NCBI GenBank assembly: GCA_033763775.1
Contig: JANRJW010000014.1
Coordinates: forward strand, 89,037-153,036
From: Alphaproteobacteria bacterium
Lineage (GTDB): Bacteria > Pseudomonadota > Alphaproteobacteria > Rickettsiales > SXRF01
DNA: 64,000 bases
Direction: 5' to 3'
Made by a program: the position numbers and the translations under genes. Every line of letters starts with the position of its first letter. Positions within the stretch are counted from its first letter, which is position 1. Shown here piece after piece: positions 298-62,497 of the stretch. The notes beneath the pieces were generated by a model. The model was not told the DNA's origin. It made no database searches and was given only the letters and a program-made list of their open reading frames with translations.

Positions 298-417
298 ATT
301 CCCTCTCCCCAGCGGGGAGAGGGCTAGGGTGAGGGGGCTAGGGTGAGGGGGCTAAGCAACGAATACCCCCTCACCCGGCTCACTGCGTTCGCCACCCTCT
401 CTCCGCTGGGGAGAGGC
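298..417. repeat. Family-B composite palindromic repeat
   Basis: Contains ccctctcccc-agc-ggggagaggg hairpin, two tandem ctagggtgaggggg units, inverted ccccctcaccc, and a second ccctctctcc-gctg-gggagagg hairpin. Same motif set recurs at 4426, 18423, 20375 and 62373. Confidence 0.85.
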
Positions 418-2313
418 TTTTGGGCGATCCTATTACTGTCATCCGTCCTCTGTCATCCAACCTCCACTCTGGCAAAGACAGAGCATTGCCTCACGCTCTG
501 GGGCGCGTGCAAATATCCGGCAGGCTTTCGCCATTTCGAGTATGTCAATCCCGCCGCGCCGGTGGGCGGCACAGTCAAGCTCGCGGAAACCGGCACTTTT
601 GATTCGCTGAATCCCTTCATCCTTAAGGGTGTGAAAGCGCCGGCCATTGGCGGCCTGTTTGAATCGCTGATGGTGCAATCTTACGACGAGCCGCAAACCA
701 TGTATGGGCTGATTGCAAAGTCAGTTGATGTTGCCAAAGATAACCGCTCGGCCACTTTTGTCCTGCGCCCGGAAGCGAAGTTTTCCGATGGCTCGCGCAT
801 CACGCCGGAGGATGTCGTGTTTTCATTTGCGACCCTGCGTGACAAGGGCGACCCCACCTTCAAAATGCTTTATGGCGGCATTGAGCGGGTAGAGGTCACG
901 GGTAAAGACGCCGTCACCTTCTATTTCATCGAAAATGCTGGCCGCGAGCAACCGATGGTCGCAGCGCAGATGCCGATTTTATCAAAAGCGTACTACGAAA
1001 AAGTCGATTTCGAAAAAACTACTTTAACACCGCCAGTGGGCAGTGGGCCTTACCTGGTGGAGTCGCTCGAGCAGGGGCGCAGTATTATCTACAAACGAAA
1101 CCCGGACTATTGGGGCTGGCACCTGCCGGTAATGCGCGGCCAATATAATTTCGCACGCATCCGCTATGATTTTTACCGCGATGAAAATGTGGCGCTCGAA
1201 GGCTTAAAAGCAGGCGAATATGATTTCCGTCAGGAATATATCGCGCGCAACTGGGCGACCGCCTATGACACCCCCGCCGTGAAAGACGGGCGCATCATCA
1301 AGCGGATGATTAAGCACCAGATCCCGCAAGGCATGCAGGCCTTTGTGTTCAACACGCGCCATGAGAAATTTGCTGACCGCCGCGTGCGCGAGGCCATCGG
1401 CCTGACCATGGATTATGAATGGCAAAATAAAACGCTCTTTTACGGGGCTTATCTGCGCAATGACAGCTATTTCAATAACACTGATTTTGAAGCGGCAGGC
1501 CTGCCGGAGGGCAAGGAGCTGGCGCTGCTTGAACCATTCCGCTGTCATCCCGTGGAGCGAAGCAGCAGCGAAGCGAGCACGGGATCCAGAGAAGACCAAA
1601 GTCAGGAGACTTTGGTCGTCGAAAATAAAAAGCTGGATTCCCGCTTTCGCGGGAATGACGATAAGAGCTATTGTTTACCAGAAAATCTATTCATCACCCC
1701 TTTCAAAAACTGGGTCAGCGATGGCAGCGGCAATAATCGCGCTGGTTTGCTTCGTGCGCAGCAGCTGCTGAATGAAGCGGGCTGGAAGGTAGAACATGGC
1801 AAGCGTGTGAATGCACGCGGCGAGCAGATGAGCGTTGAATTCATGCTGCGCCAGCCGACCATGGAGCGCGTCATTCAGCCGATGCGAAAAGGCCTCGCAC
1901 GCCTTGGCATCGCCTCCTCCATCCGCATGGTGGATGATGCGCAGTACCAGAAACGTATCGACCAGTATGATTTTGATATTGTGAGCGTGTGGCTAAATCG
2001 CGGCGTGTTTTTTCCCGGAGCAGAGCAGATGACATTGTGGCACAGTTCCCAGGCGGATATCAAAGGCGGCAATAACATCACCGGCATCAAAAATCCGGCG
2101 GTGGATGCAGCACTGGCGGCGCTTACCTCGGCGCAAAGCCTGAAGGATTTAACCGCCGCCGGCCGCGCGCTCGACCGCGTGCTGCTCTGGGAACACATCG
2201 CCATCCCCCACTGGCATTCACCGGGCTTTCGCGTCGCTTACTGGAACAAATTCGGCCTGCCGGATGTGCAGGCGAAATATAATCTATGTTTCCAGTGCTG
2301 GTGGGTGAAGTAA
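343..2313 (+). CDS. yejA: ABC peptide (microcin C-type) importer, periplasmic family-5 substrate-binding protein, YejA-like
   Basis: 656-aa ORF. FEYVNPAAPVGGT...GTFDSLNPF and overall pattern match YejA-type SBPs, and it heads a yejB/E/F operon. The GTG at 343 lies inside a repeat, so the true start is uncertain. Confidence 0.8.
   Translation: MRGLSNEYPLTRLTAFATLSPLGRGFWAILLLSSVLCHPTSTLAKTEHCLTLWGACKYPAGFRHFEYVNPAAPVGGTVKLAETGTFDSLNPFILKGVKAPAIGGLFESLMVQSYDEPQTMYGLIAKSVDVAKDNRSATFVLRPEAKFSDGSRITPEDVVFSFATLRDKGDPTFKMLYGGIERVEVTGKDAVTFYFIENAGREQPMVAAQMPILSKAYYEKVDFEKTTLTPPVGSGPYLVESLEQGRSIIYKRNPDYWGWHLPVMRGQYNFARIRYDFYRDENVALEGLKAGEYDFRQEYIARNWATAYDTPAVKDGRIIKRMIKHQIPQGMQAFVFNTRHEKFADRRVREAIGLTMDYEWQNKTLFYGAYLRNDSYFNNTDFEAAGLPEGKELALLEPFRCHPVERSSSEASTGSREDQSQETLVVENKKLDSRFRGNDDKSYCLPENLFITPFKNWVSDGSGNNRAGLLRAQQLLNEAGWKVEHGKRVNARGEQMSVEFMLRQPTMERVIQPMRKGLARLGIASSIRMVDDAQYQKRIDQYDFDIVSVWLNRGVFFPGAEQMTLWHSSQADIKGGNNITGIKNPAVDAALAALTSAQSLKDLTAAGRALDRVLLWEHIAIPHWHSPGFRVAYWNKFGLPDVQAKYNLCFQCWWVK
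1544..1660. repeat. Family-A composite palindromic element, 117 bp, in frame inside yejA
   Basis: Termini gtcatcccgtg...cgcgggaatgac are inverted. Three internal hairpins: cccgtg..cacggg, gaccaaagtc-agga-gactttggtc, tcccgc-tttc-gcggga. Encodes CHPVERSSSEASTGSREDQSQETLVVENKKLDSRFRGNDD; 117 = 39 codons. Confidence 0.85.
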
Positions 2314-2315
2314 AA

Positions 2316-2392
2316 GTGGCTAGTGCTGGTGACTAGTGTTTGTGTTTATGATAGAAGCAACCTCACTAGCCACTAGCACTAGCCACTAGCAC
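2316..2392. repeat. Heptamer-arm palindrome filling the yejA-yejB gap
   Basis: Left arm gtggctagtgctggtgactagtg; right arm cactagccactagcactagccactagcac, built from cactagc units. It starts 3 nt after the yejA stop and ends 3 nt before the yejB ATG. Confidence 0.85.
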
Positions 2393-2394
2393 CC

Positions 2395-3501
2395 ATGACC
2401 ACCTACATCCTTCGCCGCCTGCTGCTGATGATTCCCACCTTGTTTGGGATCATGGTGCTGAATTTCGTGATTGTTCAGGCCGCGCCGGGCGGGCCGGTGG
2501 AGCGCATGGTCGCACAGCTGACCGATGTCACCGGCAGTGATGCGACCAGCCGCATCAGCGGCGCGGGCGGGTCGGATACGCTATCGCGAACCGATATACG
2601 GGTTGGTGATATGTCCTCCATCTATCGCGGCGCGCGCGGGCTGGATCCGGAGCTGGTGGAGCGCATCGAGAAAATGTATGGGTTTGATAAGCCCGCGCAT
2701 GAGCGTTTTTTCCTGATGATGAAAAGCTACCTGACGCTGGATTTCGGCGAGAGTTTTTACCGCAATGAATCAGTCATCTCGCTGATCGTGAATACGCTGC
2801 CGGTGACCATCTCGCTGGGGCTGTGGACGACACTCATCATCTACCTCATTTCCATTCCGCTCGGCATCCGAAAAGCGGTTCGCGATGGCTCGCGCTTTGA
2901 TGTGGCGACCTCGTGGCTCATCATCATCGGCTATGCTATTCCCAGCTTTCTGTTTGCGATCGTGCTGATTATTTTATTTGCCGGCGGTCAGTACTTTCAG
3001 ATTTTCCCGATGAAAGGCCTCCTGTCCGATAACTGGGAGGAGCTGTCGCTGCTTGGAAAAATAAGCGATTATTTCTGGCACATCACCCTGCCGGTTGCAG
3101 CCATGGTGATTTCCGGCTTTGCCTCGCTCACCATGCTCACCAAAAACTGCTTCCTGGAGGAAATCAGCAAGCAATATGTGCTGACCGCCCGCGCCAAGGG
3201 GCTCACCGAAAATCAGGTGCTTTACGGCCATGTATTTCGCAATGCCATGCTGGTAGTGATTGCCGGGCTGCCGGGCGCGCTGCTTCGCATTTTATTTACC
3301 AGTGCCCTGCTCATTGAGATTATTTTTTCCTTAAATGGCCTTGGCCTGCTTGGCTATGAGGCGGTAGTGAACCGCGACTATCCGGTGATGTTCGGCACGC
3401 TGTTTATTTTCACGCTGCTCGGCCTCATCACCTCGCTCATCGGCGACATCATCTACATGCTCATCGATCCGCGCATTGATTTTGAAAGGCGCGGTGCATG
3501 A
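2395..3501 (+). CDS. yejB: ABC transporter permease, YejB-like
   Basis: 368 aa. [34 protein letters not shown] is a typical DppB/YejB N-terminus. Multi-pass membrane protein in operon context. Confidence 0.85.
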
Positions 3502-4379
3502 GCCTGATATCCAGCGAACCATTCGTGCCGCACAGCTTCGCCCATATCGAGGAAAAGCGCGTCTTTCCAAAAGGCGCGGTGCCGGAGATCGCCTATAACA
3601 AATTCCTACGCGACTACGAAGCGCTGGAAGGCGTAAGCACAAGGCGCATCACCTATCAAAACGATGGCCTCACCATCACCGGCCTCATAGTGCTGCCGGA
3701 AAAGGTAAGCGCCCGAAATCACCCCCTCCTCATCTTCAACCGCGGCGGCAGCCGGGATTACGGCAAGCTCACGGTGGTAAACGTGCTGCGCCACATGGCA
3801 CCGTTTGCCAAGGCGGGCTATCTGGTGTTTGCCTCCAACTATCGCGGCAATGATGGCGGCGATGGTCAGGATGAATTTGGCGGCCGCGATGTCGGCGATG
3901 TGCTGGCGCTGCTGGATATTGCGCGCGCGCATGAAGCATTCGATGGCAAGCGTGCCTTCATGCTCGGCCATTCGCGCGGCGGCATGATGACGATGATGGC
4001 GCTGCGCGAAAAAGCCGCCGTGAAAGCGGCGGTGGTGCTCGCCGGCGTGTCGGATGTGCGCCGCTCAGCGCGCGAGCGCCCGGAGCTGCAAACAGCAGTG
4101 TTTGAGCGGCTTTTCCCCACCGGTGATCTCGACAAAGAATTTGAAAAACGCTCCTCCGTTGCGTGGGCAGATGAGATTGAAACGCCAGTGCTGCTGCTGC
4201 ACGGCGATGCCGATGAGGCCGCGGCAGTGGGGCATAGCATCGCACTTGCCGAAGCACTAGAGCGCGCTGGGAAAAAACACGCGCTGCATATTTACCCGCG
4301 CGGCAACCATTCGCTTTACCGCGTGTGGGATGATGTCATGGCTCGCTCACTGGGCTGGTTTGAGGAGCATGCTGTATGA
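3498..4379 (+). CDS. alpha/beta serine hydrolase (S9 prolyl-oligopeptidase / dienelactone-hydrolase-like)
   Basis: 293 aa with GHSRGG nucleophile elbow, LLLHGDAD and GNHSL (Ser-Asp-His pattern). Its ATG overlaps the yejB stop (ATGA). Confidence 0.7.
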
Positions 4380-4386
4380 TGGAAGG

Positions 4387-4418
4387 CATTAGGGATTCGG
4401 CTTTAGGGGTTAGGGGGG
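4387..4418. repeat. Degenerate heptamer array (cattagg gattcgg ctttagg ggttagg ggg)
   Basis: Tandem 7-nt periodicity seen directly. Related heptamers occur at 31622-31693 and 48797-48877. Confidence 0.6.
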
Positions 4419-4425
4419 ATCATTC

Positions 4426-4509
4426 TTCCCTCTCTGCGTTCCAGAAAGAAGGCCAGGGTGAGGATCTTACTTCCCCCTCTCCCTTTCAGGGAGAGGGTCG
4501 GGGTGAGGG
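4426..4509. repeat. Family-B palindromic repeat
   Basis: Contains ttccctctctgcg...ccagggtgagg followed by ccccctctccc-tttc-agggagaggg-tcggggtgaggg. Confidence 0.8.
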
Positions 4510-4530
4510 TAAACACCGGAATGAGGGTCT

Positions 4531-5781
4531 ATGAGTCCACTGACACAAAGAAGATTATCCCTCTTTACCGCCAACCGCCGCGGGTTCTGGAGCCTATGGA
4601 TTTTCCTCGCGCTCTTTTTGCTCACGCTCTTTGCCGAGCTGATAGCCAATGACAAGCCCATCGTTCTTTCCTACCAGAACCAGCTTTATTTCCCTGTTTT
4701 CAAAGCCTATAGCGAAAAAGAATTTGGCGGCGATTTTGAAACCGAAGCGGTGTATCGCGATCCTGAGGTTCAGAAACTGATCTTAAGCTGCAAGGACATT
4801 CACGCTATGCCGCCAGCGAAAATGCCAGTTTCCGAGAGCCGCGAGGGAGCGTACAAAGAAGTACGTAACCGAGAGGAAGCGCAGGAAACTGCATTTGCAG
4901 CAAGGCATAGTAGTGAATGTGGTTGGATGATCTGGCCGCTCATACGTTACAGCTATGACACCATCAATTACGACCTTGGCCGCCCTGCCCCTGCCCCGCC
5001 ATCCGCTGAAAACTGGCTGGGGGTGGATGATCAGGGGCGCGATGTGCTCGCACGCCTCATTTACGGCTTTCGTCTCTCGGTGCTGTTTGCACTAGCGCTC
5101 ACCATTTCCAGTTCCGTCATCGGCATTTTTGCGGGCGCAGTGCAGGGCTATTTTGGTGGCTGGGTGGATTTGATTTTCCAGCGCTTCATCGAAATCTGGC
5201 AAGGTCTGCCGGAATTATTTTTGCTGATTATTCTGGCCTCCATCATCACGCCAAGCTTTGGCTGGCTGCTGCTCATCCTGCTGCTTTTTTCATGGATGAG
5301 CCTGACCGGTGTGGTGCGCGCCGAGTTCCTGCGCGCGCGTAATTTTGATTATGTCAAGGCCGCACGCGCCCTTGGCGTTGGCGAATGGCGCATCATGATC
5401 CGCCATGTACTACCCAACGCCATGACCGCTGCCATGACGATGATTCCCTTCATCCTCGCCGGCTCCGTCACCGCGCTCACCACCCTTGATTTCCTTGGTT
5501 TTGGCCTGCCGCCCGGTTCGCCGTCGCTGGGCGAGCTGCTGCTGCAGGGCAAATCCAACCCACAGGCGCCGTGGCTCGGCTTTACTGGCTTTCTGGTGAT
5601 CGCCCTGCTGCTCGTGCTCATCATCTTTATTTCCGAAGCGGTGCGCGATGCGTTTGATCCAAGAAAGGTGACGGCAAATCTTAGCTCGCTTGCGAGCTTG
5701 GATTCCCGTCATCCCCGCGAAGGCGGGGATCTCATGCCACCAGGGAACCAGACCCCGCAACAAGTGCGGGGTGACAAATGA
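4531..5781 (+). CDS. yejE: ABC transporter permease, YejE-like
   Basis: 416 aa. N-terminus MSPLTQRRLSLFTANRRGFWSLWIF and WMIWPLIRYSYDT match YejE. It is longer than I recall for the family because of two repeat-derived segments. Confidence 0.85.
   Translation: MSPLTQRRLSLFTANRRGFWSLWIFLALFLLTLFAELIANDKPIVLSYQNQLYFPVFKAYSEKEFGGDFETEAVYRDPEVQKLILSCKDIHAMPPAKMPVSESREGAYKEVRNREEAQETAFAARHSSECGWMIWPLIRYSYDTINYDLGRPAPAPPSAENWLGVDDQGRDVLARLIYGFRLSVLFALALTISSSVIGIFAGAVQGYFGGWVDLIFQRFIEIWQGLPELFLLIILASIITPSFGWLLLILLLFSWMSLTGVVRAEFLRARNFDYVKAARALGVGEWRIMIRHVLPNAMTAAMTMIPFILAGSVTALTTLDFLGFGLPPGSPSLGELLLQGKSNPQAPWLGFTGFLVIALLLVLIIFISEAVRDAFDPRKVTANLSSLASLDSRHPREGGDLMPPGNQTPQQVRGDK
4797..4920. repeat. 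About 124-bp imperfect palindrome inside yejE
   Basis: acattcacgctatgcc...cagtttcc...gtac-aaagaa-gtac...ggaaactg...ggcatagtagtgaatgt. Read in frame as DIHAMPPAKMPVSESREGAYKEVRNREEAQETAFAARHSSEC. Confidence 0.75.
5668..5777. repeat. Family-A-like hairpin cluster forming the 3' end of yejE
   Basis: Hairpins atccccgc-gaag-gcggggat and accccgc-aacaagt-gcggggt. Translated as the tail [36 protein letters not shown] after the family-typical ...RDAFDPRK. Confidence 0.7.
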
Positions 5782-7373
5782 GCCTGCTTTCTATCCAAAA
5801 TCTTTCTCTCTCCTTTGGTGAAAAGAAAGTCGTAAGGAGCGTCTCACTCGAGATACATCGCGGCGAAATGCTGGCACTGGTTGGCGAGTCCGGCTCCGGC
5901 AAATCGCTCACAGCGCTGTCGATCATGGGGTTGCAACCCGGCGGGGCAACACGAGGCGGTCAGATCAACTTTGATAATCTTGAGATCCCCGCACAAGGCG
6001 GGGATGACGTTCTACGGCCACTACGCGGCAAGCGCATCTCCATGATCTTCCAGGAGCCAATGACAGCGCTCAACCCGCTCCATACCATTGGTAAGCAGAT
6101 TGCTGAGATGTTTGATGGTTATCCTCAGCGAGCCATCGGCGAGTCGAAGGATCTCAAGATCCCTCGACAAACTCGGGATGACAAGATTAGTGCTCTCCTC
6201 GACTCCGTCGGCCTTTCCCACTTCAAAGACCGCCTGGACGCCTATCCGCATCAGCTTTCCGGCGGCGAGCGCCAGCGTGTGATGATCGCCATGGCGATTG
6301 CCAATAAACCTGACCTGCTGATTGCCGACGAACCCACCACGGCGGTGGATGTCACCATCCAGAAGAAAATCCTCGAGCTGCTCAAAGAGCTGCAACAAAG
6401 CATGGGCATGGCGATCCTGTTCATCACCCATGACCTGACCGTGGTCAGGCGCCTGTGCGACCGCGTGGCGGTGATGAAGCAGGGCGAACTCGTGGAACAA
6501 GGCAAGGTGGTGGATGTCTTTGCCACCCCGAAACACCCCTACACCCAGCAATTACTGGCAAGTGAGCCAAAAGGCGAGGCCGTGGCGACCCAGGCCGATG
6601 CCCCGCAGCTTCTCTCCTGCCGCTCTCTGAAAGTCCACTTCCCCATCAGGCGCGGCCTGCTCCGGCGCACAGTGGGGCATGTGAAGGCGGTGGACGGCGT
6701 GGATCTCGAGGTACGAAAAGGCGAATGCATCGGCATTGTCGGCGAATCCGGCTCCGGCAAATCCACGCTCGGCTTTGCGCTGCTCAGGCTCATCCAAAGC
6801 GAAGGAAATATTACTTTCTTACCATCTGCCAGCCAGCAACCATCCACCAATCTTCGCCGCCACATGCAGCTGGTGTTTCAGGATCCCTATTCCAGCCTCA
6901 GCCCGCGCATGACGGTGGAACAGATTATCGGCGAAGGCTTGGGTGTGCATGAAAAGCACTTAACTGCAGCCGAGCACAGCCAGAAAATCCGTGACATATT
7001 GATGGAAGTCGGTCTGGATGAAACCGTACTTTCCCGCTTTCCGCATGAGTTTTCAGGCGGCCAGCGCCAAAGAATTTCCATTGCGCGCTCGGTGGTGCTG
7101 AGGCCGCAGCTGCTGGTGCTCGATGAGCCAACGAGCGCGCTGGATCTCACCATTCAGTCCCAGATCATTGATCTACTTAAAAATTTGCAACGCAAATATG
7201 GCCTGAGCTATGTGTTTATCAGCCACGACCTGCGCGTCATCCGCGCCATCGCCCACCGCATTGTGGTGATGCAAAAAGGCAAAATCGTTGAAACTGGCGA
7301 CACGCGCCGCGTTCTCGAAACCCCGCGCGAGGACTATACAAAAACACTCATCGAAGCAGCGTTTCTGAAATAA
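5778..7373 (+). CDS. yejF: ABC transporter ATP-binding protein with two ATPase domains, YejF-like
   Basis: 531 aa with two Walker A sites (GESGSGKS twice), two LSGG signatures, and an ATGA overlap with yejE. Confidence 0.85.
5982..6009. repeat. Family-A-type hairpin inside yejF
   Basis: gag-atccccgc-acaa-ggcggggat-gacg, read as [10 protein letters not shown]. Confidence 0.55.
6139..6183. repeat. Family-A half element inside yejF
   Basis: gaaggatctcaagatccctcgacaaactcgggatgac closely matches the right half of the intergenic element at 32709-32772 (gagggatcctaagatccctcgacgacgctcgggatgac). Read as [15 protein letters not shown]. Confidence 0.7.
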
Positions 7374-7374
7374 G

Positions 7375-9001: not shown

Positions 9002-9159
9002 AAGATTTTCTAGGCAGAAAAGCCGCAAAGGTCTAATGGATTTTTTTTCAAAGTCATTTATATGTGACGAGTGCTAGGCAGCGACGCGCGCAGAAGTTGA
9101 GCGTAGCAGCGCTACGTGATACTTCGAGCACGACGATAACGACGCAATCGGCCATAGAA

Positions 9160-10545
9160 ATGACTTTATTTTCAGACACCATATTCGCACTCGCCACACC
9201 GCTTGCCAAATCCGGCGTCGCCATCATCCGCATCAGCGGCAAGCTTGCTTTACCAACACTGATCCAGCTCACCGGTAAAACTAGTTGGCAACCAAATCTT
9301 GCTACTTACTGCACCTTTTTTTCCCCAATGCCCAATGCCCAATCCCCAATCCAAATCGACACTGGCCTCGCCCTTTACTTCGCCGCGCCCAAAAGCTTCA
9401 CCGGCGAGGATGTGGTGGAGCTGCATCTGCATGGCAGCCTCGCCGTCATCCGCGAGATGCAGACGGTGCTTTCTGAGATACCCGGTCTACGCCATGCCGA
9501 AGCCGGGGAATTCACTCGCCGCGCTTTTATGAATGGCAAAATGGATTTGCTGGAAGCAGAGGGGCTTGCGGATCTTATCGAAGCCGAAACGCTCCAGCAA
9601 AAACGACAGTCTCAAGCGCAAATGCAGGGCGAGATGAGCCGCTATTATGAGAGCCTTCGTACGCAGATGGTGCGCGCACTTGCCCATCTCGAGGCTTATA
9701 TCGATTTTCCTGAAGAAGAGATTCCGGAAAGCGTGATTATCAGCCTGAAAGATGATATTCATCAGATGGTTAATAATATCACTGCAGCACTGGATGACGG
9801 CAGAAGAGGCGAGCGGCTCAGGGAAGGGCTCACCATCGCCATCATCGGCGCGCCGAACGCTGGAAAATCAAGTATTCTCAACAGATTAGCTGGAAGGGAT
9901 GCCGCCATCGTCTCGCCGCTTGCTGGCACCACCAGAGATGTTATTGAAATTCATAAAGAAATAGCAGGTTTTCCCGTCACATTCCTCGACACCGCTGGGC
10001 TGAGAGATGCCGCAGATAGCATTGAAGAAGAGGGGGTTCGCCGCGCCCGCCAGCGCGCCGCCGGCGCGGATTTGAAGCTGATTGTCTTTGATGCCGGCCA
10101 GCCGATGGACAGCGAGAGCAGGGGGCAGATTGATGCCAATAGCCTGATTATACTAAATAAAATTGATTGCCATCCCGGAAAATTTTGCAGCAGCAAAATT
10201 TATCCGGGATCCAGCAAAGCCAAAAGTCAGGAGACTTTTGGCGTCGAAACCATCAACATCTCCGCCCTCACAGGCGAGGGTATGGATGTGCTTATGGCAT
10301 CTATCACTATGTTTATTCAGCAGAAATATCACACCAGCGAGTCTATATTGATCACGCGAGCGCGCCACCGCGAGCTGCTTGAGACCGCCAAAGCGCATCT
10401 GCTTCGCATCCAACTTGATGCGCCGCTGGAGTTAACCTGCGAAGAACTGAGGCGCGGCGCGGTCTGCCTTGGCAAAATCACTGGAAAAATCAGCGTGGAT
10501 GATGTATTGGACGTGGTCTTTTCCACATTCTGTATCGGTAAATGA
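9160..10545 (+). CDS. mnmE: tRNA modification GTPase MnmE (TrmE)
   Basis: DTIFALATP...[16 protein letters not shown]-domain GAPNAGKSS...DTAG...NKID, C-terminal FCIGK. Start placed at the ATG at 9160; the upstream ORF extension is non-homologous. Confidence 0.9.
9324..9357. repeat. Tandem heptamer array (cccaatg x2, cccaatc x2, plus a degenerate unit) inside mnmE
   Basis: Direct 7-nt periodicity, read as [10 protein letters not shown]. Confidence 0.8.
10169..10248. repeat. Family-A partial element in frame inside mnmE
   Basis: atcccgg-aaaattttgc-agca-gcaaaattt-atccgggat hairpin plus gccaaaagtc-agga-gacttttggc-gtcgaaa. About 85% identical by eye to the middle of the yejA copy. Encodes [27 protein letters not shown]. 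Confidence 0.8.
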
Positions 10546-12431
10546 GCTACGATTTTGACGTCATCATCATCGGCGGGGGCCACGCAGGAACAGAGGCGGC
10601 AAGCGCGGCAGCACGCCTTGGCGCGCGTACGGCGCTGATTACACAAAAGGCCACCACTATCGGTGAAATGTCATGCAACCCCGCTATTGGCGGCATCGGC
10701 AAAGGCACATTGGTGAGGGAAATTGACGCGCTGGATGGCGTCATGGGGCGCGCAATCGACCGCGCAGGCATCCATTACAAAATGCTCAATAGCAGCAAAG
10801 GCCCGGCTGTTCGCGGCCCACGCGCCCAGGCCGACCGCAAACTCTATCGCCAGGCCGTTCAAGAGATTCTCCGCGAATACGAACATCTCACCATCATCGA
10901 AGATTCCGTCGAAGACTTGCTTTTACATCCCCGCGCAAGCGGCGATCCTGTAGCTGCCATTAGCGGAATCCTCACTGCCTCTGGCCGTGAAATCCGCGCG
11001 CCGAAAATTGTCCTGACCACCGGCACTTTTCTTAATGGCCTGATCCATCTCGGCGAAAAGAAAATCCGCGCGGGCAGGGTGGGGGAGGCTCCCTCGATTG
11101 GCCTGTCAAACACACTCAAACGCATTGGTTTTAATACCGGCCGCTTAAAGACAGGAACGCCGGCACGCCTTGATGGCAAGACAATTAACTGGGGGATTCT
11201 AGAAGAACAAAAAGGCGATGAGCCGCCAACGCCATTTTCATATCTGACTGAGCGCGTTTCCGTGCCGCAGATATCCTGCTTCATCACTCACACAAGCCCC
11301 ACCACCCACGGAATCATCAGGGAGAATCTGCACCGCTCGCCAATGTATTCCGGCCAGATAGAATCTACTGGGCCGCGCTATTGCCCATCGATTGAAGACA
11401 AGGTGGTTCGCTTCGCTCACCGGCAGCGCCACCAGATTTTCCTTGAGCCGGAAGGGCTCGATGATGACACGGTTTACCCCAACGGCATTTCTACGTCGCT
11501 GCCGGAAGAAGTTCAGCACGCCCTCATAAAGACCATTCCGGGGCTTGAAAACGCGATTATACTTAGACCCGGTTATGCCATTGAATATGACTATGTCGAC
11601 CCACGCGAACTAAAGCCAACACTCGAAACCAAGAAGGTGAGTGGGCTTTATTTCGCTGGCCAGATCAATGGCACCACGGGCTATGAAGAAGCAGGAGGGC
11701 AGGGGGTAGTCGCCGGGCTGAACGCGGCCTTAGCGGCTGGTGGCTCTAAGCCGTTTATCCTTGATCGCTCGGACGCTTATATAGGAGTGATGATTGATGA
11801 CCTGATTACCCATGGCACCACTGAACCATACCGTATGTTTACATCGCGTTCAGAGTATCGCTTATCTCTGCGTGCCGATAATGCCGATCTTCGCCTGACC
11901 TCGCGCGCTATCGATATGGGGTGTGTCTCATCCCCTCGAGCCGCTATCTATAGAGAAAAGGAAGTTATCCACAATGTTTCACGTGAAACATTTTTGAACC
12001 TCTCCATGACGCCCAATGAAGCAATGGCTTACGGCATCAAATTAAATCAGGATGGCATTCGAAGAAATGCTCTTGAGCTACTTTCAAACCCCAACATCAC
12101 CTATGATGATCTGGTCAGACGGTGGCCACAGCTCGGAGAAATTAGGCCGGATATAAAAGAGCAAATCGAAATTGAGGCGATGTATAGCGGCTATCTTGAT
12201 CGTCAGATGGAAGATATTGAAAGCTTCAAAAAAGAAGAAAAAATGCTGATTCCTGAGAACTTTGATTTTGATCCACTACCTTCGATATCTAACGAGATCA
12301 AGGCCAAGCTCAAGGCTGCCCGCCCCGCGACCATTGGTTCTGCCAGCCGCATCCAAGGCATGACGCCGGCCGCGCTTGTAGCACTCATGGCGCATATCCG
12401 CAAATCGGAGCAGCTGAAAAAAAGTGCGTGA
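10542..12431 (+). CDS. mnmG: tRNA uridine 5-carboxymethylaminomethyl modification enzyme MnmG (GidA)
   Basis: 629 aa. [19 protein letters not shown] motif, [24 protein letters not shown] overlap with mnmE. Confidence 0.95.
11975..11990. promoter_or_regulatory. parS: parS centromere-like ParB-binding site (perfect TGTTTCACGTGAAACA), inside mnmG
   Basis: Exact match to the canonical 16-bp parS palindrome; flanks extend it to aatgtttcacgtgaaacattt. Confidence 0.85.
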
Positions 12432-13092
12432 AGATTGGTTTCACCAACTAAACCAGATCGAAAATGTTTCACGTGAAACATTTTCACGCCTATGTATCTA
12501 TCATGATCTGCTGGTTAAATGGCAAAGCAAAATCAATCTGGTAAGTCAATCGACAATAGCCGGCGCCTTCCACCGACACATCATCGATTCCTACCAGCTC
12601 GTTCCCATCATCAAAAAGCTCAAAAATGTTTCACGTGAAACATTTTCACTCGCCGATATCGGAACCGGCGCCGGTTTTCCGGGTATGGTTCTGGCGATCG
12701 TAGGGGCAGGGGATGTCCATCTCATTGATACCGATATAAAGAAGATGACTTTCCTGAGAGAGGTAAGTCGCTTAACGAAAACGAATGTGAACTTTCACCA
12801 ACAAAGAATTGAGTCCTGCCAACTACCAGAAACTGATTGTTTCACTTCACGTGCCACTTCAAGTTTGAGTGATTTGATCGAATGGGCATCCAAAAATGTT
12901 TCACGTGAAACATTTTTTCTCTTCCATAAGGGCAAAAACTATTCTAGTGAGTTAGATGAACTGAAAAGCAAATGGTCATTCGACCATCAGCTTTTTCCAA
13001 GCGTGACAGACCCTAGCGGGGTCATCATTCATCTATCCCATGTTGCGAGGCTGCCCGATGAAAACTCCGAACCAGCTGGAAAAAAACAATAA
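12424..13092 (+). CDS. rsmG: 16S rRNA (guanine527-N7)-methyltransferase RsmG (GidB)
   Basis: VSRET...[31 protein letters not shown]-binding motif. Position between mnmG and parA. GTG start. Confidence 0.85.
12465..12480. promoter_or_regulatory. parS: parS site (perfect TGTTTCACGTGAAACA), inside rsmG
   Basis: Exact consensus palindrome within aaaatgtttcacgtgaaacatttt. Encodes NVSRETF. Confidence 0.85.
12627..12642. promoter_or_regulatory. parS: parS site (perfect TGTTTCACGTGAAACA), inside rsmG
   Basis: Exact consensus palindrome. Encodes a second NVSRETF just before the SAM motif [10 protein letters not shown]. Confidence 0.85.
12897..12912. promoter_or_regulatory. parS: parS site (perfect TGTTTCACGTGAAACA), inside rsmG
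   Basis: Exact consensus palindrome. Encodes a third NVSRETF. Confidence 0.85.
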
Positions 13093-16473: not shown

Positions 16474-16956
16474 CTAGTGCGCCGAAAGCACGGATGATAA
16501 GCGCTGGTGATAAAGCTCGGCCAGCTCAGCAATGCCGCGCTTGATGGCATCCTGCTCCGAAACATAAGCCGAGTAATACTGGTTGGGCAGATTGTTATAG
16601 CTGCTGACATGGCGCAGGCTGCCGCCAGCTACCGACTGAGTTTCGCCAATGCGGTAAAGCTTGTAGTTGGAAACTAGGTTCACGTTATAGCGAGTCACCG
16701 TGCCATCACGCGAAACGCCAAGGCCGGCGGTCGTAATCGCAAGATCTGCAACCAAACGATAGGTCGGATTCACCGGCACCGCGCCACCCGGATTCAGCTT
16801 ATCTTCCAGCTGAATCTGCAGCTGCTGGCGCTGCGAGCGCTCCTGCGCGCTGGCCTCCACCACCACCCCCGCCACCGGCGAAGCCGCCGCTGGCACAGCG
16901 CTTTTAGCGCCATACATAGGCTGAAAACCGCAGGCGGATAGTAGGAAACACGTCAT
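16474..16956 (-). CDS. lptE: LPS-assembly lipoprotein LptE (RlpB)
   Basis: MTCFLLSAC lipobox, then GFQPMYG. Position between leuS and holA. The start codon lies inside a repeat; alternative ATG at 16974. Confidence 0.65.
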   Translation of the reverse strand: MTCFLLSACGFQPMYGAKSAVPAAASPVAGVVVEASAQERSQRQQLQIQLEDKLNPGGAVPVNPTYRLVADLAITTAGLGVSRDGTVTRYNVNLVSNYKLYRIGETQSVAGGSLRHVSSYNNLPNQYYSAYVSEQDAIKRGIAELAELYHQRLSSVLSAH

Positions 16957-17017
16957 GCCGGCGAAAGCCGGCATCCAGATTTGATAAGAACTGGATCCCC
17001 GGTTTCGCGGGGATGAC
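16952..17017. repeat. Family-A element (66 bp) at the leuS-lptE junction
   Basis: gtc-atgccggc-gaaa-gccggcat-ccag...ctgg-atccccg-gttt-cgcggggat-gac. Termini gtcat/atgac are inverted. Confidence 0.85.
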
Positions 17018-20306: not shown

Positions 20307-20374
20307 AAGCGACTCCGTGTAGTTCGGGGTCGGAATGTAGTGAAAAGGAAAGGAGGGTGCAAGTAATTGATGAT

Positions 20375-20400
20375 CCCCTCTCCCCACTGGGGCGAGGAGG
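20375..20400. repeat. Family-B hairpin
   Basis: cccctctcccc-actg-gggcgaggagg. Confidence 0.6.
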
Positions 20401-43124: not shown

Positions 43125-44792
43125 TCATGGCCTGATACGCTCATAATAAATGAAGCGAAGCTGGTTTTTATCGTTGAGCGCTGCCTCTGTAGCAAGAATA
43201 GAGGCGCTGCCTTTAAATTTTTCATAATATAAACGCAACACTGGGAGCAATTCTTGTGGAACATCGATGTAGCGCTCAACCATTCGATAATTATTGGTAA
43301 ACTCAGGAAGCGCATGCATGCCATGGTCACTGAGGAAAGCAGGTTTCTTTGCGCCCCAAATGTGTCCAAAAATAATATAATCTGGCCTTCGAGACAAAAC
43401 ATATTGCCCATCACCCTTGAGATGCCCCACGACATAGGCAGTGAAATCATCTGGAACAACCGCGGCATCATAGGGCTTTCTCGCTATATATTTATCATTA
43501 AGCCCTAGCATATCAATATAGCGAAACTGAGGCGCTATATAAGGTAAAGCACCGGCAGGGTTGATCGCAATCAACGATCCTGACGGCCAGTTTTCACTGA
43601 TGTAAGGCCCTGCCGATAGCCCCGAAATTGCGCCTTTTGATAAATAATCATCTAATTCAACATAACCAAACTGTAAAATAGAAAGCACGATCATCGCACC
43701 AGAGAAATCTCGAAAATACCTTTCGTTTTTTTCTATTAGCCAACCTGCTGTGTAAAAAATAAATATCGCCAGAAGCGGAATGATCGGTACATAAAAACGC
43801 AAATATTTCATGTGATCACCGCCACTGGTAATCACATGCCAGAAGAGCGCAGTTATCAACAGCAAGAGATAAAAAGCTGTGCGAGATTTTAATGCATAAT
43901 CACGGATCATCCAGAAGAGCACAAGCACCGCAAGAGGCAGCAAAGGTGGCACATAAAATATTTGAAAGATATAAAACCAGCCAAGGCGAGTCAGCAGATC
44001 GGCAGGAATGCCATACACTTTGGCATAGTACGTATTAGGCAGGAAATCGCCATACATATGGTATTTCCACGCCATCCACGGCGCAAAAAGCAGCATGAAG
44101 CCAAAAAAGAGCAGCATCAGGCGCGAAAAATCGAGATATTTGCGCTGCGATGGCAGCAGCCAGAAAAGCCCAAGCACAATGCCGGTGATGCCCCAGATCA
44201 TGAGGCCTTCCATGCGCGTCATGGTCGCAAGCGCAAAGAGGACACCGGTTAAAAACACCATTTTTTTGCTCAGGCCAAACTCAAGCCAGTACAGCACGAG
44301 GCAAACAGCACCGGTGAGTAGAAAGCTGAAAAGAACGGCCTCCAGCCCGCCCATCACCCATGCGAGCACCGGCACCGCTGAGGCGACAAGCCCAACGCAT
44401 AGCGCGGCATTAATCTGATGGGCGTAATATTTCTCGCTGCTGGCAAATTTCCGCCGGTACATGGTCTGCGTAAAGCCATAAAGCACCGCCAGTAAGGCAA
44501 AATATCCCGCAAAGCTAACCACACGAGTTGCGAGTACCAGATCCATGCCCAGCCAGCCAAGAGCGGCAATCAGCACCATGTAAAGAAAGTTCGAATAGCC
44601 CTCAACCGGCTCATCGCCGCGGCTCCACACGAGGCCGTAGCCCTCGAGCCAATTGCGCGCATAGACCAGTGTGATGTAGGAATCATCCTGATAAAAGCCG
44701 CGCGTAAACCACCATACGACCAGCGCAATCGCAGCGCTTTGAAGGTAAATATAGGCAGGCGGCCAATGCGCTTTTTTAGGAAGCGCTGCCAT
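43125..44792 (-). CDS. GT-C-fold membrane glycosyltransferase (ArnT/PMT/arabinofuranosyltransferase-like)
   Basis: 555 aa. N-terminal FYQDDSYITLVYARNWLEGYGLVWSRGDEPVEGYSNFLY is typical of DD-motif GT-C enzymes. Many TM segments and a C-terminal soluble domain. Confidence 0.6.
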   Translation of the reverse strand: MAALPKKAHWPPAYIYLQSAAIALVVWWFTRGFYQDDSYITLVYARNWLEGYGLVWSRGDEPVEGYSNFLYMVLIAALGWLGMDLVLATRVVSFAGYFALLAVLYGFTQTMYRRKFASSEKYYAHQINAALCVGLVASAVPVLAWVMGGLEAVLFSFLLTGAVCLVLYWLEFGLSKKMVFLTGVLFALATMTRMEGLMIWGITGIVLGLFWLLPSQRKYLDFSRLMLLFFGFMLLFAPWMAWKYHMYGDFLPNTYYAKVYGIPADLLTRLGWFYIFQIFYVPPLLPLAVLVLFWMIRDYALKSRTAFYLLLLITALFWHVITSGGDHMKYLRFYVPIIPLLAIFIFYTAGWLIEKNERYFRDFSGAMIVLSILQFGYVELDDYLSKGAISGLSAGPYISENWPSGSLIAINPAGALPYIAPQFRYIDMLGLNDKYIARKPYDAAVVPDDFTAYVVGHLKGDGQYVLSRRPDYIIFGHIWGAKKPAFLSDHGMHALPEFTNNYRMVERYIDVPQELLPVLRLYYEKFKGSASILATEAALNDKNQLRFIYYERIRP

Positions 44793-45523: not shown

Positions 45524-45602
45524 GTCATTGCGAGCGTAGCGAAGCAATCCAGCAGTTGCAAGAAAATCTGGATTGCTTCGTCGCTTCACTCCTCGCAATG
45601 AC
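45524..45602. repeat. 79-bp palindromic element (gtcattgcgag type)
   Basis: gtcattgcgagcgtagcgaagcaatccag...ctggattgcttcgtcgcttcactcctcgcaatgac; inverted termini. Confidence 0.85.
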
Positions 45603-47135: not shown

Positions 47136-47243
47136 GTCATCCCCGCGAAAGCGGGGATCCAGTCTAAGCCGTGATTAGTGACGAAAGAATTTTTTTCCTC
47201 GCTGGCGCGAGTAACGCTGGATTCCTGCTTTCGCAGGAATGAC
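47136..47243. repeat. Family-A element (108 bp), intergenic
   Basis: gtc-atccccgc-gaaa-gcggggat-ccag ... ctgg-attcctgc-tttc-gcaggaat-gac. Confidence 0.9.
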
Positions 47244-47291
47244 GGAACTATACTGGTAATTTTGCGAAATCTGAAAAAAACAGAGTTTTTT

Positions 47292-48236: not shown

Positions 48237-48335
48237 GTCATTCCCCGAATTTTTGCGCTTGCAAAAATTCCAGGGGAATCCAGTATGCTAAACCATGGAT
48301 CGCCCTAGAATTCGTAAGCGAATTCGGGCGATGAC
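48237..48335. repeat. Family-A element (99 bp), intergenic
   Basis: gtc-attccccgaatttttgc-gctt-gcaaaaattccaggggaat-ccag ... cgccctagaattcg-taag-cgaattcgggcg-atgac. Confidence 0.9.
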
Positions 48336-48358: not shown

Positions 48359-48796
48359 ATGGAACATCCCGGACTTCATGGCTATTATTTTGAGGAGCTG
48401 AGCCTCGGGCAGCAGGCGAGCGTCTCGCGCACCATCACCGAAACTGACCTTCGCAACTTTTCCGGCGTCTCCGGCGATACCAACCCGATGCACTTGAGCG
48501 AAGAATTCGCTAAGCAAACCATCTTTGGTGGCACCATTGTGCATGGCATGCTCACTGCCAGCCTGATTTCCGCCGTCATCGGCACCAAGCTGCCCGGCCC
48601 GGGCTGCATCTACATGAGCCAGAGCCTCAAATTCCTTGCGCCCGTGCGCGTCGGCGATACGGTGTATGCCACCGCTACCGTGAAAGCGCTGGTGCCGGAG
48701 AAAAAACGCGTGGTACTGACCACGCAGTGTTTTGTTAAGGAGACGCTGGTGGTGGATGGCGAAGCGCTGATTAAGGTACCTTCTAAAAGGGATTAA
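48359..48796 (+). CDS. MaoC-like (R)-specific enoyl-CoA hydratase / hot-dog dehydratase
   Basis: FSGVSGDTNPMHL...IVHGML motif; 145 aa. Confidence 0.8.
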   Translation: MEHPGLHGYYFEELSLGQQASVSRTITETDLRNFSGVSGDTNPMHLSEEFAKQTIFGGTIVHGMLTASLISAVIGTKLPGPGCIYMSQSLKFLAPVRVGDTVYATATVKALVPEKKRVVLTTQCFVKETLVVDGEALIKVPSKRD

Positions 48797-48877
48797 GCAT
48801 TAGGGATTGGGGATTATGGGTTGACTTTAACGATACTCACTCTACTCCCTAATGCCTAATCACCAATGCCTAATGCC
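48797..48877. repeat. Heptamer-arm palindrome (cattagg/cctaatg type) upstream of ribF
   Basis: gcattagggattggggattatgggttg / ctccctaatgcctaatcaccaatgcctaatgcc. Confidence 0.8.
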
Positions 48878-48883
48878 TATTTT

Positions 48884-61057: not shown

Positions 61058-61062
61058 TAAAC

Positions 61063-62355
61063 CTAATCACCAAAATAGCCTTTCCACGCCATCTCCAGCA
61101 GCTCTTCGCTGACCGTCACTGGCTGCCCGCGATACAGGCAGACATCGCGCATGCGCTCGATGAGGTCGCGCGGTTCGCAGGCGCGAAGCTCTTTCTTTGA
61201 GGCCTCATAGCGCCCATGCAGCGCTTTCAGGAAACTCTCCGGCACGGTGACGTTGTAGCGCTGTGCATAACGGCGGAAAATCGCGTTGTAATTCTCCGTT
61301 GTCGGCTTATCGATGGTGAGGCGGTAGCCAATGCGGCGCAGGAATGCGGGATCAGTGACATCTTCCGGCCGCAGGTTGGTGGCGATAATCAGCATGAGCA
61401 GGAACGGCACCTGAATCTTCTGCCCACCAAACAGCGTGAGGAAATCCACGCGGTGCTCGAGAGGAATAATCCAGCGGTTAAGCAGCTCGCTTGGCTCCAC
61501 ATGCTGGCGGCCAAAATCATCAATCAGGAAGGTGCCGCCATTGGCTTTCATGTGCAGCGGTGCTTCGTAATATTTGAGCGAGGGCAGGTAGGTCATGTCG
61601 AGCGACTCCAGCGTCATCTCGCCGCCCGCCACTACAAATGGCCGCTTGATTTTCACCCAGCGACCATCCACCGCGCCCGGCTTTGCCGCTACGTCTACGG
61701 CATGGTGGCAATGGGTGTCGTAAAGGCGGATGATGTGGGTATCCACTGCGATAGCATGCGGTATCCAGATATCGCCCTGCATGACGTGATGCAGCGCACG
61801 CCCCATGCTGGTTTTGCCGTTGCCGGGCGGCCCCGATACAAACAGGCTGCGCCCCGAGGATACCGCCATGCCCGCCACTTCCACCGAAGCGCTGTCGAGC
61901 ACCAGCTCGGATAGCGCCTGTGAGACCTGCTGCGGCGTCACCGCGCGCGGCTGGCTTGCATCCCATTCAAACATCGCCGTATAGGCCGCAAGCGATACCG
62001 GCGCCGGACCAATATAGCCCGAAATATCCAGCTGGCGCTGCGCGCGTTCACGCCCGCGCTGAGAGAGATTATAGCGGTAGCCCTGCTGCTCGTTATGCCC
62101 AAGCACCTCCAGCAGGTTGTCAATACGCATCGCCTCCAGCAGCTCCGCCACCACTAACTGCGGCAAATGCATGCGCTTTGCGATATCTTCAGTGGTAAAT
62201 TGCGGCAGAATATAAGCAGTTTTCAGCGCAATGTCTGAAAGCAGCGCCCGCGAAACCCCCGCCCCTGCAACGCTGGTCGGCGCGGCCGGAGCCATGCCAT
62301 CTTCCAGGGAAATGAGCTTCGGAAGCGCACTTATGGTCTCGTTCGCGATCATCAT
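61063..62355 (-). CDS. AAA+ family ATPase of unknown role
   Basis: GPPGNGKTS Walker A, FLIDDFGRQ Walker B-like, ATNLRPEDVTDPAFLRRI sensor/arginine region. The N-terminal approximately 150 aa is unassigned. Confidence 0.6.
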   Translation of the reverse strand: MMIANETISALPKLISLEDGMAPAAPTSVAGAGVSRALLSDIALKTAYILPQFTTEDIAKRMHLPQLVVAELLEAMRIDNLLEVLGHNEQQGYRYNLSQRGRERAQRQLDISGYIGPAPVSLAAYTAMFEWDASQPRAVTPQQVSQALSELVLDSASVEVAGMAVSSGRSLFVSGPPGNGKTSMGRALHHVMQGDIWIPHAIAVDTHIIRLYDTHCHHAVDVAAKPGAVDGRWVKIKRPFVVAGGEMTLESLDMTYLPSLKYYEAPLHMKANGGTFLIDDFGRQHVEPSELLNRWIIPLEHRVDFLTLFGGQKIQVPFLLMLIIATNLRPEDVTDPAFLRRIGYRLTIDKPTTENYNAIFRRYAQRYNVTVPESFLKALHGRYEASKKELRACEPRDLIERMRDVCLYRGQPVTVSEELLEMAWKGYFGD

Positions 62356-62372
62356 ACATTAACCCTTTTTTT

Positions 62373-62497
62373 CCTCCCCCCTTGAGGGGGAGGGTTAGGG
62401 TAGGGGGTCAAGAAACATTACCCCTCACCTCGGTTTGCCTAAAACTTAGCTGACGCTACGTCATAAGGCAAACCGTCCTCTGCCTCAAGGGGAGAGG
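62373..62497. repeat. Family-B composite repeat between the AAA+ gene and gdh
   Basis: cctcccccc-ttga-gggggaggg-ttagggtaggggg, inverted cccctcacc, ggtttgcct...aggcaaacc hairpin, cctctgcc-tcaa-ggggagagg. Confidence 0.85.

Follow-up and report, generated by a model that had tools for sequence, protein, structure and literature searches.

Hairpin repeats of three widespread classes in frame inside housekeeping genes of an alphaproteobacterium labelled Rickettsiales

The DNA analyzed here, referred to as the window, is a 64-kb stretch (64,000 nucleotides) of contig JANRJW010000014.1 from assembly GCA_033763775.1, positions 89,037 to 153,036, and comes from an uncultured alphaproteobacterium. It holds about 35 palindromic or tandem-repeat loci, and about 15 copies of these repeats are found in frame inside eight genes: yejA, yejE, yejF, mnmE, leuS, yggS, atpG and priA. 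The three repeat families involved, termed here Family A, Family B and the heptamer arrays, are not inventions of this lineage but belong to cosmopolitan repeat classes. We read them as selfish or neutral hairpin repeats with a fast turnover that are tolerated in frame at permissive protein loops, and assign this reading a probability of roughly 70%.

Apart from its repeats, the window is ordinary alphaproteobacterial housekeeping DNA, with a G+C content ranging from 0.47 to 0.62 (that of the host is given as 55%). It carries yejA-yejB-(S9 peptidase)-yejE-yejF, mnmE-mnmG-rsmG-parAB, holA-lptE-leuS and a DUF3576 lipoprotein gene, as well as genes for a porin, yggS, the atpHAGDC cluster, priA, transaldolase, secF, ribF, lspA, mutL and purH. 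The closest public DNA comes from freshwater and groundwater metagenome-assembled genomes (MAGs) labelled "Rickettsiales bacterium" or "Alphaproteobacteria bacterium". Loci L014 and L081 belong to one such MAG, which has 98% identity to the window in YejB and about 90% across most proteins; locus L001 shows about 82-91% identity to the window proteins and the wider clade 55-80%. Rickettsia was missing among the 80 best YejB or AtpG loci. Repeats were located by searching for direct and inverted repeats, by self-BLAST and by reading the sequence; the counts expected by chance were obtained from dinucleotide-preserving shuffles, and in-frame status was judged by aligning the window proteins with orthologues from syntenic loci.

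Abundance and identity of the three repeat families

The repeat loci stand well above the shuffled expectation by each of the measures used. GTCATYCCC, the terminal motif of Family A, was matched 7 times versus 0.79 expected, and the published pattern for Ssn-related motifs (SRMs) 5 times versus a mean of 0.33 in 100 shuffles. The Family B motif GGGTGAGGG, with at most one mismatch, occurred 35 times versus 10.7 expected and a shuffle maximum of 18. Tandem arrays of period 7 with at least 3.5 copies numbered 15 in the window versus 1 in 30 shuffles combined, and versus 5 arrays of all other periods together; their copy numbers fall between 4.0 and 4.9, typically about 4.4. Loci with an exact 10-nt inverted pair within 200 nt numbered 32 versus 13.8 +/- 3.6. 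By reading of the map of open reading frames (ORFs), about 16 of the 22 intergenic gaps of at least 50 bp hold an element. In-gene copies occur at about one per 4 kb of the window, and 9 of the 15 heptamer arrays sit within essential genes, where they are read in frame. Folding computations predicted a strong hairpin on either strand for all elements, and Rfam at its gathering thresholds matched only a tRNA-Arg in the window, with no repeat corresponding to a curated RNA family. The sequence-only reading of this stretch, made before the present analysis, had claimed more than 30 repeat loci of three types that fill most intergenic gaps, and on both points the counts above agree with it. Scans of other genomes additionally revealed that the motifs recur well outside the window.

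Family A elements are 65-165 bp long and carry inverted hairpins of the NTS/dRS3 type (SRMs) at their ends. The terminal hairpin GTCATYCCCGCGAAAGCGGGRATCCAG is that of the Neisseria Transformation Sequence (NTS)/dRS3, CGTCATTCCCGCGMAVGCGGGAATCYRG, and the NTS consensus is matched exactly at 1633-1660 on the minus strand. An exact 27-mer of the Family A hairpin was found in no fewer than 120 genomes spread over many phyla, one of them that of a Rickettsia endosymbiont. Two inverted copies often lie 67-117 bp from each other and enclose a middle specific to the host, i.e., the architecture of Family A. According to the portion of Chenal et al. 2025 (PMC11893778) used here, SRMs are cut as single-stranded DNA by small GIY-YIG Ssn nucleases, often flank the ssn gene in an arrangement that resembles an insertion sequence (IS), and are enriched in Rickettsia, Wolbachia, Neisseria and others. 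The window elements share with those of other phyla the succession of hairpin, variable middle and inverted hairpin; they differ in that several window hairpins have enlarged loops, which places them outside the strict SRM pattern, and in that no ssn gene was found in the window. In-frame coding copies are not a topic of the portion of Chenal et al. used here.

Family B has the layout of BoxC, also known as PIT or "TM", namely CCCTCTCCC-loop-GGGAGAGGG-3 nt-GGGTGAGGG, and is multicopy (301-349, 4475-4510, 18451-18486 and 62372-62411). The copy at 4475-4510 differs at only 1 of 36 positions from E. coli TM_ECO no. 12 (Table 1 of PMC4666352). Holder et al. 2015 (PMC4666352) reported this intrastrand-triplex motif from E. 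coli and from over 260 genomes. Inverted pairs occur in the window as they do in E. coli; the difference is that Family B copies are also found inside genes, where they are predicted to be translated, in leuS of the window, yejA of L014 and priA of L282, a relative with 58% identity.

The third family consists of arrays of about 4.4 tandem heptamers, alone or in palindromic pairs. Dispersed arrays of about four heptamers are known elsewhere, and the cyanobacterial STRR presumably count among them. In Geobacter metallireducens, the Gmet_H4 and class-3 sites are of this kind and also occur inside genes and in palindromic pairs (PMC2700814), while four-unit heptamers are formed by GGGAATC in Xanthomonas and GGGGAYT in Nostoc, with no accepted mechanism for the class (PMC4692102). 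Arrays with three units of ATTAGGG were found across phyla and are palindromic in some cases (e.g., L327). The window arrays thereby share with those elsewhere the unit of 7, the preference for about four units, the many dispersed copies and the occasional palindromic pairing, and differ in the coexistence of many families, the 9 of 15 arrays in essential genes, and hot spots that recur clade-wide. Biochemical handles exist for two of the three classes, namely the Ssn nucleases for NTS/SRM and triplex formation for BoxC.

In-frame copies and the proteins that carry them

The in-gene copies are as follows, with strand and the effect on protein length relative to orthologues.

1544-1660, plus strand: Family A element in yejA; 42-residue insert, reads CHPVERSSSEASTGSREDQSQETLVVENKKLDSRFRGNDD
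About 4786-4920, plus strand: unclassified long palindrome CATTCACGCTATGCC...GGCATAGTAGTGAATG in yejE; 41 residues added
5708-5775, plus strand: Family A-like double hairpin forming a 33-residue C-terminal extension of yejE; overlaps the yejF start
5985-6008, plus strand: single Family A hairpin ATCCCCGCACAAGGCGGGGATGAC in yejF; no net length gain
6140-6182, plus strand: partial copy of the 32709-32772 element in yejF; about 8 residues added
9322-9352, plus strand: heptamer array TCCCCAA x4.4 in mnmE; 4 residues added
10169-10249, plus strand: 5' half of a Family A element (terminal and middle hairpin) in a G-domain loop of mnmE; 13 residues added versus L014
18420-18490, minus strand: Family B (BoxC) element in leuS; 14 residues added, reads HPHPTPLPDREREAAQSAAGEG
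22194-22224, plus strand: heptamer array GGCTTCA x4.4 in yggS, LQASGFSLQ; no net length gain
25129-25211, minus strand: heptamer palindrome of the GAGTGGC type in atpG; about 8 to 15 residues added
30045-30073, minus strand: heptamer array, TCATCCG x4 on the coding strand, in priA; 2 to 3 residues added
30683-30756, minus strand: two adjacent heptamer arrays (on the coding strand GGCTTCA, then AAAGCCC) in the Cys-rich zinc-finger loop of priA; 21 residues added
31391-31473, minus strand: heptamer palindrome after the Walker A helix of priA, same family as in atpG, ...HHSPLATRH; 24 residues added
31660-31692, minus strand: ATTAGGG-type heptamer array in priA; stretch 4 residues over the modal length

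Each of the eight host ORFs is full length, with high conservation on both sides of every insert. Clear insertions, which most or all orthologues are without, are those of yejA, yejE (both the 41-residue insert and the C-terminal extension), leuS and, in priA, 31391-31473 and 30683-30756. The yejA site is empty in L001 and 11 other orthologous loci; in the window its element ends in a 3' hairpin (1633-1660) of exact NTS consensus, and the loop of its 5' hairpin is enlarged. The yejE insert at about 4786-4920 is common to the window and L014 only, and the leuS insert is missing from L081, L083 and L147. The smaller gains fall in loops that are already variable (mnmE 10169-10249 and 9322-9352, yejF 6140-6182, atpG, and priA 30045-30073 and 31660-31692), and several in-gene copies overwrite loops that vary anyway, adding little or no length. 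The yejF site at 5985-6008 is longer by about 17 residues in L014 and L001, and at the yggS site the peptides of L081 and L091 resemble translations of heptamer palindromes.

The sequence-only reading had placed about 15 in-frame copies in nine genes, with four in priA. The overall count stands, the genes number eight, and five arrays were found in priA. Two of the cases it proposed were dropped because the ORF had been extended upstream of the real start: the element at 20373-20397 precedes the likely start of the DUF3576 protein (MRYLLF..., with a lipoprotein signal), and that at 9050-9167, assigned to the MnmE N-terminus, precedes the ATG at 9160 used by orthologues. The alignments showed the inserted segments to be missing from or different in orthologues. 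The two dropped cases, together with a short-read assembly of this locus that breaks at the repeats, are the observations that would favor the inserts being artefactual, whether through mis-assembly at repeats, pseudogenes or over-extended ORFs. We give this explanation very little credence, considering the intact and conserved state of the eight host ORFs, the fact that assemblies made independently from different samples show the same inserts or analogous ones, and the purging of in-frame stops described below.

Structure models, which report confidence and secondary structure, were used to locate the inserts within the folded proteins. The AlphaFold2 model of PriA has a mean predicted local distance difference test score (pLDDT) of 81 and a predicted template modelling score (pTM) of 0.84. 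Its only segments below a pLDDT of 50 are residues 105-116, 179-184, 186-194, 414-430 and the 3-residue 657-659, all of them coil, and the longer ones coincide with heptamer inserts. For YejA (mean pLDDT 89), the sole internal low segment, 412-440, is the Family A insert. HMMER alignments to solved E. coli PriA and Paracoccus F1-gamma also place gaps at the positions of the inserts. The inserts appear, from these models, to be tolerated as floppy surface loops. The evidence for this is model confidence and secondary structure, in PriA and YejA.

The heptamer arrays have a further property that bears on their tolerance. Because 7 mod 3 = 1, a tandem heptamer array yields one 7-residue peptide, cyclically permuted, whichever of its three frames is read, and this frame independence of the peptide explains why such arrays are tolerated in genes. 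It also has the consequence that the same family yields the same peptide in different genes, i.e., LQASG in yggS and priA, and EW[QR]VASGEK...HHS[PS]LAT in atpG and priA. Of all heptamers, about 69% have no stop on a given strand, and for about 50% the same holds on both strands. The intragenic arrays all lie in their stop-free orientation: the coding strands carry GGCTTCA, TCATCCG and AAAGCCC, whereas TGAAGCC and CGGATGA, the first two read in reverse complement, include a stop. ATTAGGG is a stop-containing unit, and in priA 31660-31692 its in-frame TAG is replaced by TTG. Likewise, the last array unit in L282 reads TAT where the repeat predicts an in-frame TAA (DNA read by eye). Since in-frame stops have been mutated away, the inserts are probably translated; this is the best evidence for translation obtained here, and it argues, at the level of sequence, that the in-gene copies persist as translated segments.

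Two side observations concern PriA. PF18319, the PriA zinc ribbon, was reported for most short, insert-free PriA proteins and was missing for many longer ones bearing an insert in the zinc-finger loop; repeats can therefore hide domain annotations. Additionally, the alignment shows that other alphaproteobacterial PriA proteins have about 60 residues, probably the winged-helix region, that separate the 3'-DNA-binding domain from the helicase core and are missing in PriA of this clade, and the junction (residues 100-125, nt ~31610-31690) is occupied by a heptamer array and a low-confidence loop.

Turnover at recurrent sites, origin and spread

Comparison of near relatives revealed that the content of the sites changes rapidly. 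At the same yejA codon, Family A is present in the window and Family B in L014, and the site is empty in L001. The yejF gene of L014 carries a 124-bp Family A copy (...HPVE...STGS...ENKELDSRFRGND) at a position where the window has none, and this copy is read in the same frame as the yejA copy of the window. L081 has two leuS inserts that the window is missing and different sequences at the atpG, yggS and priA sites. Arrays of period 7, and in some MAGs of period 8, are present in some relative lineages and missing in others; arrays of about 4-5 octamers occur besides heptamers in the related MAGs L007, L010, L082, L085 and L091, and would be equally frame-independent because 8 is coprime with 3.

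The same few sites were found to be occupied repeatedly across the clade. Exactly 9 residues separate two anchors in 100 of 120 YejA orthologues, and the remaining 20 carry 13-42 extra residues whose interiors derive from SRM-like, BoxC-like or heptamer-like DNA; a neighbor-joining tree requires at least 13 gains or losses at this site. In PriA, site S2 holds segments of 14-36 residues in 33 of 119 orthologues (mode 8; at least 22 events on a neighbor-joining tree), and site S3 segments of 13-63 residues in 36 of 119 (mode 7; at least 20 events). S2 and S3 are filled together above chance (odds ratio 4.5, p = 7e-4), which suggests a "repeat load" that acts at the level of the genome. The priA DNA of L282 carries heptamer palindromes at both S2 and S3, the S3 insert resembling the ATTAGGG/CCTAATG-type family of window 48788-48880, and a BoxC-like element in frame at a third site. 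A heptamer palindrome is also present at S2 in the priA DNA of L284.

The insert-bearing YejA proteins share one feature that is independent of the repeat inside. In 19 of the 20, a Cys stands directly before and directly after the insert (C-H-P...D-D-x-x-C), and this Cys pair was found in none of the 100 empty alleles. As YejA is periplasmic, the bracket may represent a disulfide staple; alternatively, it may be a landing pad that the inserts share. In four genomes, both junctions of the YejA insert carry a short (N)ATTGY direct repeat. These observations draw on the YejA orthologue alignment (window residues 402-445, nt 1546-1680) and on loci L286, L287 and L288.

A single ancestral YejA insert followed by later loss was considered as the sole explanation and rejected. 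The 100 empty alleles are not excision products, as they have an identical 9-residue spacing and no Cys codons.

Searches with the YejA insert itself returned little. A word-index protein search with the 46-residue insert peptide gave no candidates, and an exhaustive phmmer search with the 45-residue insert against 1.8 billion representatives gave only five weak matches, which look like ORFs running through repeat arrays and are uninformative on host proteins.

The Cys bracket is one reason to ask whether the intragenic copies have been exapted, with the DNA or RNA structure or the encoded loop being useful to the cell. Candidate roles would include modulators of transformation or recombination, triplex or G-rich structures by which replication or expression is tuned, and disulfide-stapled YejA surface loops. 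Such roles are in line with the bracketing of 19 of 20 inserts in a periplasmic protein whatever the element inside, with the occupation of the same sites in a quarter to a third of PriA orthologues, and with the activities of related repeats, given that transformation of Neisseria is modulated by its NTS repeats and that genomic instability has been linked to BoxC motifs (PMC4666352). However, the sequences that close relatives carry at a given site are unrelated and in many cases the site is empty, the models show no structure for the segments, most orthologues do without inserts, and there is no conserved peptide motif beyond what the repeat DNA dictates. We consequently regard exaptation as unlikely for the intragenic copies in general.

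The origin of the heptamer arrays is a separate question. These arrays, and perhaps other palindromes, could arise in place through replication slippage and hairpin-templated (fold-back) repair at fragile positions that encode loops, followed by homogenization through concerted evolution. Many heptamer units share the period and the approximately 4.4 copies, and different heptamers occupy orthologous sites, e.g., GAGTGGC in the window versus AGTGGAC/CACCGTC in L081 priA, where the aligned peptide reads QWTVDSGQK...HRPPSTVH. An in-place origin would also fit the systematic transitions by which the arms differ, the octamer arrays of related MAGs, and the fact that no mobilizing gene was found in the window or the relatives' loci. 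On the other hand, the same units recur at unrelated positions: GGCTTCA in yggS and priA, GAGTGGC in atpG and priA, and ATTAGGG at 4380, 31660 and 48788 as well as in PriA of the relative with 58% identity. Identical ATTAGGG arrays are moreover found across phyla, and slippage alone does not account for the narrow copy number. Formation in place is therefore a possibility to be kept in mind for the heptamers, though a doubtful one.

Under the reading that we prefer, of selfish or neutral hairpin repeats tolerated at permissive loops, copies would spread through single-stranded hairpin intermediates. For Family A, an Ssn-type GIY-YIG single-strand nuclease whose gene lies in another part of the genome may be involved, and homologous recombination of filled alleles may help spread between lineages. 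In-gene copies survive only if the net length change is a multiple of three, only if the frame that is read has no stop, a filter that heptamers pass by default in all frames of a stop-free strand, and only at permissive loops, with the same few codons being hit repeatedly across the clade. We tentatively consider, as a further and rather doubtful step, that SRM/NTS, BoxC, heptamer and octamer palindromes reach the same codons of essential proteins time after time and independently across the clade, and that this insertion is site-directed, e.g., into an existing hairpin or the single-stranded DNA at certain fork positions. If true, site-directed delivery would imply an activity able to produce arrays of about 31 nt that have a period of 7 or 8; the Cys-bracketed loop of YejA would be one of several inserts that now function as part of their protein, and the clade would represent a natural system for how selfish hairpin DNA makes new protein loops.

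Several points weigh against the preferred reading. Neither the window nor about 60 kb from its nearest relatives yielded a gene for a transposase, a RAYT or a GIY-YIG/Ssn protein. Pfam scans of ORFs were among the searches made; a regular expression and tblastn with approximate consensus sequences, a weak test, likewise gave no GIY-YIG/Ssn gene in the window, L014, L081 or L001. The gain and loss counts come from quick neighbor-joining trees and could be inflated by recombination. Empty YejA alleles are without (N)ATTGY, the only flanking direct repeat found, and the Cys...Cys bracket hints at selection for, or common descent of, the YejA insert and not at neutral tolerance. Finally, the genome evidence comes from these 64 kb, and the case that the inserts are translated is drawn from nucleotide and protein sequence.

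Comparison with other coding repeats, and further features of the window

Ten open-frame translations of Family A copies were compared with NCBIfam, which presumably contains models for the domains of Rickettsia palindromic elements (RPEs), and gave no match at E <= 10. RPE-1 to RPE-10 (Ogata et al. 2000, 2002), as far as they are summarised in PMC10969869, are the closest precedent, and in-frame palindromes have been termed "unique but recurrent" in Rickettsia, with scattered parallels elsewhere. Both RPEs and the window repeats are small intergenic palindromes that are also found in frame within unrelated housekeeping genes, are presumed to be tolerated at the surface, and are polymorphic among relatives; dispersed palindromes of about 100-150 bp in frame inside ORFs are a further likeness, as is the Rickettsiales label of the window host in public records. 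The differences lie in a host of another genus with 55% G+C and in three cosmopolitan classes versus genus-specific families. The phenomenon is functionally RPE-like, but the elements, compared at the peptide level, are not RPE members. The sequence-only reading had drawn this parallel while describing the sequences as different from those of Rickettsia; the core of the parallel holds, and the second part holds for some of the sequences only, since SRM hairpins are reported as enriched in Rickettsia as well. Because Rickettsia is rich in the same SRM hairpins, a link between its elements and those of the window through SRMs is plausible.

Other small repeats inside coding sequences include Coxiella QMITE1, enterobacterial RU/ERIC and the mitochondrial palindromes of Nematomorpha; within what PMC5896051, PMC2759123 and PMC6649704 provided for this comparison, they resemble the window elements as inverted repeats in frame and differ in families and hosts. 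Miniature inverted-repeat transposable elements have terminal inverted repeats, as do the window elements; no transposase, and with it no parent IS whose ends match, turned up in the scanned ORFs of the window. No description of heptamer-array palindromes or BoxC motifs as coding inserts was found in the literature searched. Coding palindromes have so far mostly been treated as a Rickettsia curiosity, and the same outcome is reached here by three widespread classes in a lineage richer in G+C. This suggests that colonization of loops by hairpin repeats is a general possibility where the repeat load is high. Recurrent hot spots at which mechanism and tolerance may be studied are PriA after Walker A, the PriA zinc finger, the YejA loop and the F1-gamma loop.

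The intergenic and upstream elements of the window are listed below.

298-416: Family B (BoxC/triplex-motif) pair in inverted orientation, upstream of yejA
2315-2387: heptamer palindrome GCTAGTG/CACTAGC, yejA-yejB spacer
4380-4514: ATTAGGG-type heptamers, then two Family B units, spacer between the S9 peptidase gene and yejE
9050-9167: palindromic element AAAGTCATTT...AAATGACTTT, upstream of mnmE, with the probable start ATG (9160) inside its 3' terminus
16952-17017: Family A element of 65 bp with two SRM hairpins, leuS-lptE spacer
19598-19761: Family A element of 164 bp, leuS-DUF3576 spacer
20373-20397: Family B half-unit, upstream of the probable DUF3576 start and outside the protein
22522-22591: perfect palindrome with 22-nt arms, at the yggS stop
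23356-23426: heptamer palindrome GGTTGCT/AGCAACC, downstream of atpD
28142-28222: nonamer-array palindrome, between atpA and atpH
32709-32772: Family A-like element GTCATCCCGA...TCGGGATGAC, intergenic
45524-45602: GTCATTGCGAG...CTCGCAATGAC element with inner motifs ATCCAG/CTGGAT, between the PEBP and nfuA genes
47136-47244: Family A element of 109 bp, upstream of or overlapping the secF ORF start
48237-48335: Family A element of 99 bp, intergenic
48788-48880: ATTAGGG/CCTAATG heptamer palindrome, intergenic
62371-62499: Family B pair in inverted orientation, intergenic

At the 4380-4514 locus, the spacer measures 180 bp in the window versus 31 bp in L001; of the two Family B units, that at 4430-4469 is degenerate and that at 4475-4510 is the 35/36 match to TM_ECO no. 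12 noted above.

The predicted hairpins differ in stability between strands. The plus-strand hairpin is more stable by at least 2 kcal/mol in 11 of 21 elements and the minus-strand hairpin in 1, because the arm mismatches are mostly G-T/U on the plus strand; no conclusion drawn here rests on this bias. The GC skew of the plus strand is negative throughout the window, and the stability bias may reflect a strand-specific mutational or structural bias.

Upstream of the 4380-4514 spacer, a gene for a prolyl-oligopeptidase/S9-type alpha/beta hydrolase (3498-4379) is placed between yejB and yejE, and stop and start codons overlap. Distant relatives (L001, L014 and L286) share this order, and the gene appears to have been added to the microcin C/peptide ABC importer operon throughout the clade. 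A 2872-bp Logan contig with an identical yejB (L161, DRR729085_397254) ends within yejA on one side and just past this S9 peptidase gene on the other, close to repeat elements of the window, which suggests that the repeats fragment short-read assemblies. In exact-sequence look-ups, this contig was the only record of YejB, and PriA of the window gave no record.

Between atpH and priA, a segment of about 1 kb (28832-29865) encodes a 334-residue protein with a type IV pilin-like N-terminal methylation motif; the close relative L081 is without it and has 91 bp in its place. The region 41670-44792 is low in G+C (0.47), contains two long ORFs (484 and 555 residues) with no Pfam match, and adjoins glycosyltransferase- and sulfotransferase-like genes; an island for surface polysaccharides is a possible reading.

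Around TGTTTCACGTGAAACA, which we take to be a parS-like site, a perfect palindrome is present in four copies (11973-11997, 12460-12487, 12620-12649 and 12891-12917) within the mnmG 3' end and rsmG, just upstream of parA-parB. The position of these palindromes near parA-parB suggests an origin-proximal partition region.

Lastly, an 84-bp direct duplication (35175-35258 and 35313-35396, 94% identical) takes in the first ~38 nt of the tRNA-Arg gene. An intact tRNA-Arg(CCG) is located at 35359-35435, with a truncated 5' half of the tRNA 138 bp upstream, and each 84-bp duplicate starts with a partial Family A hairpin (ATTCCCGCTTTCGC).

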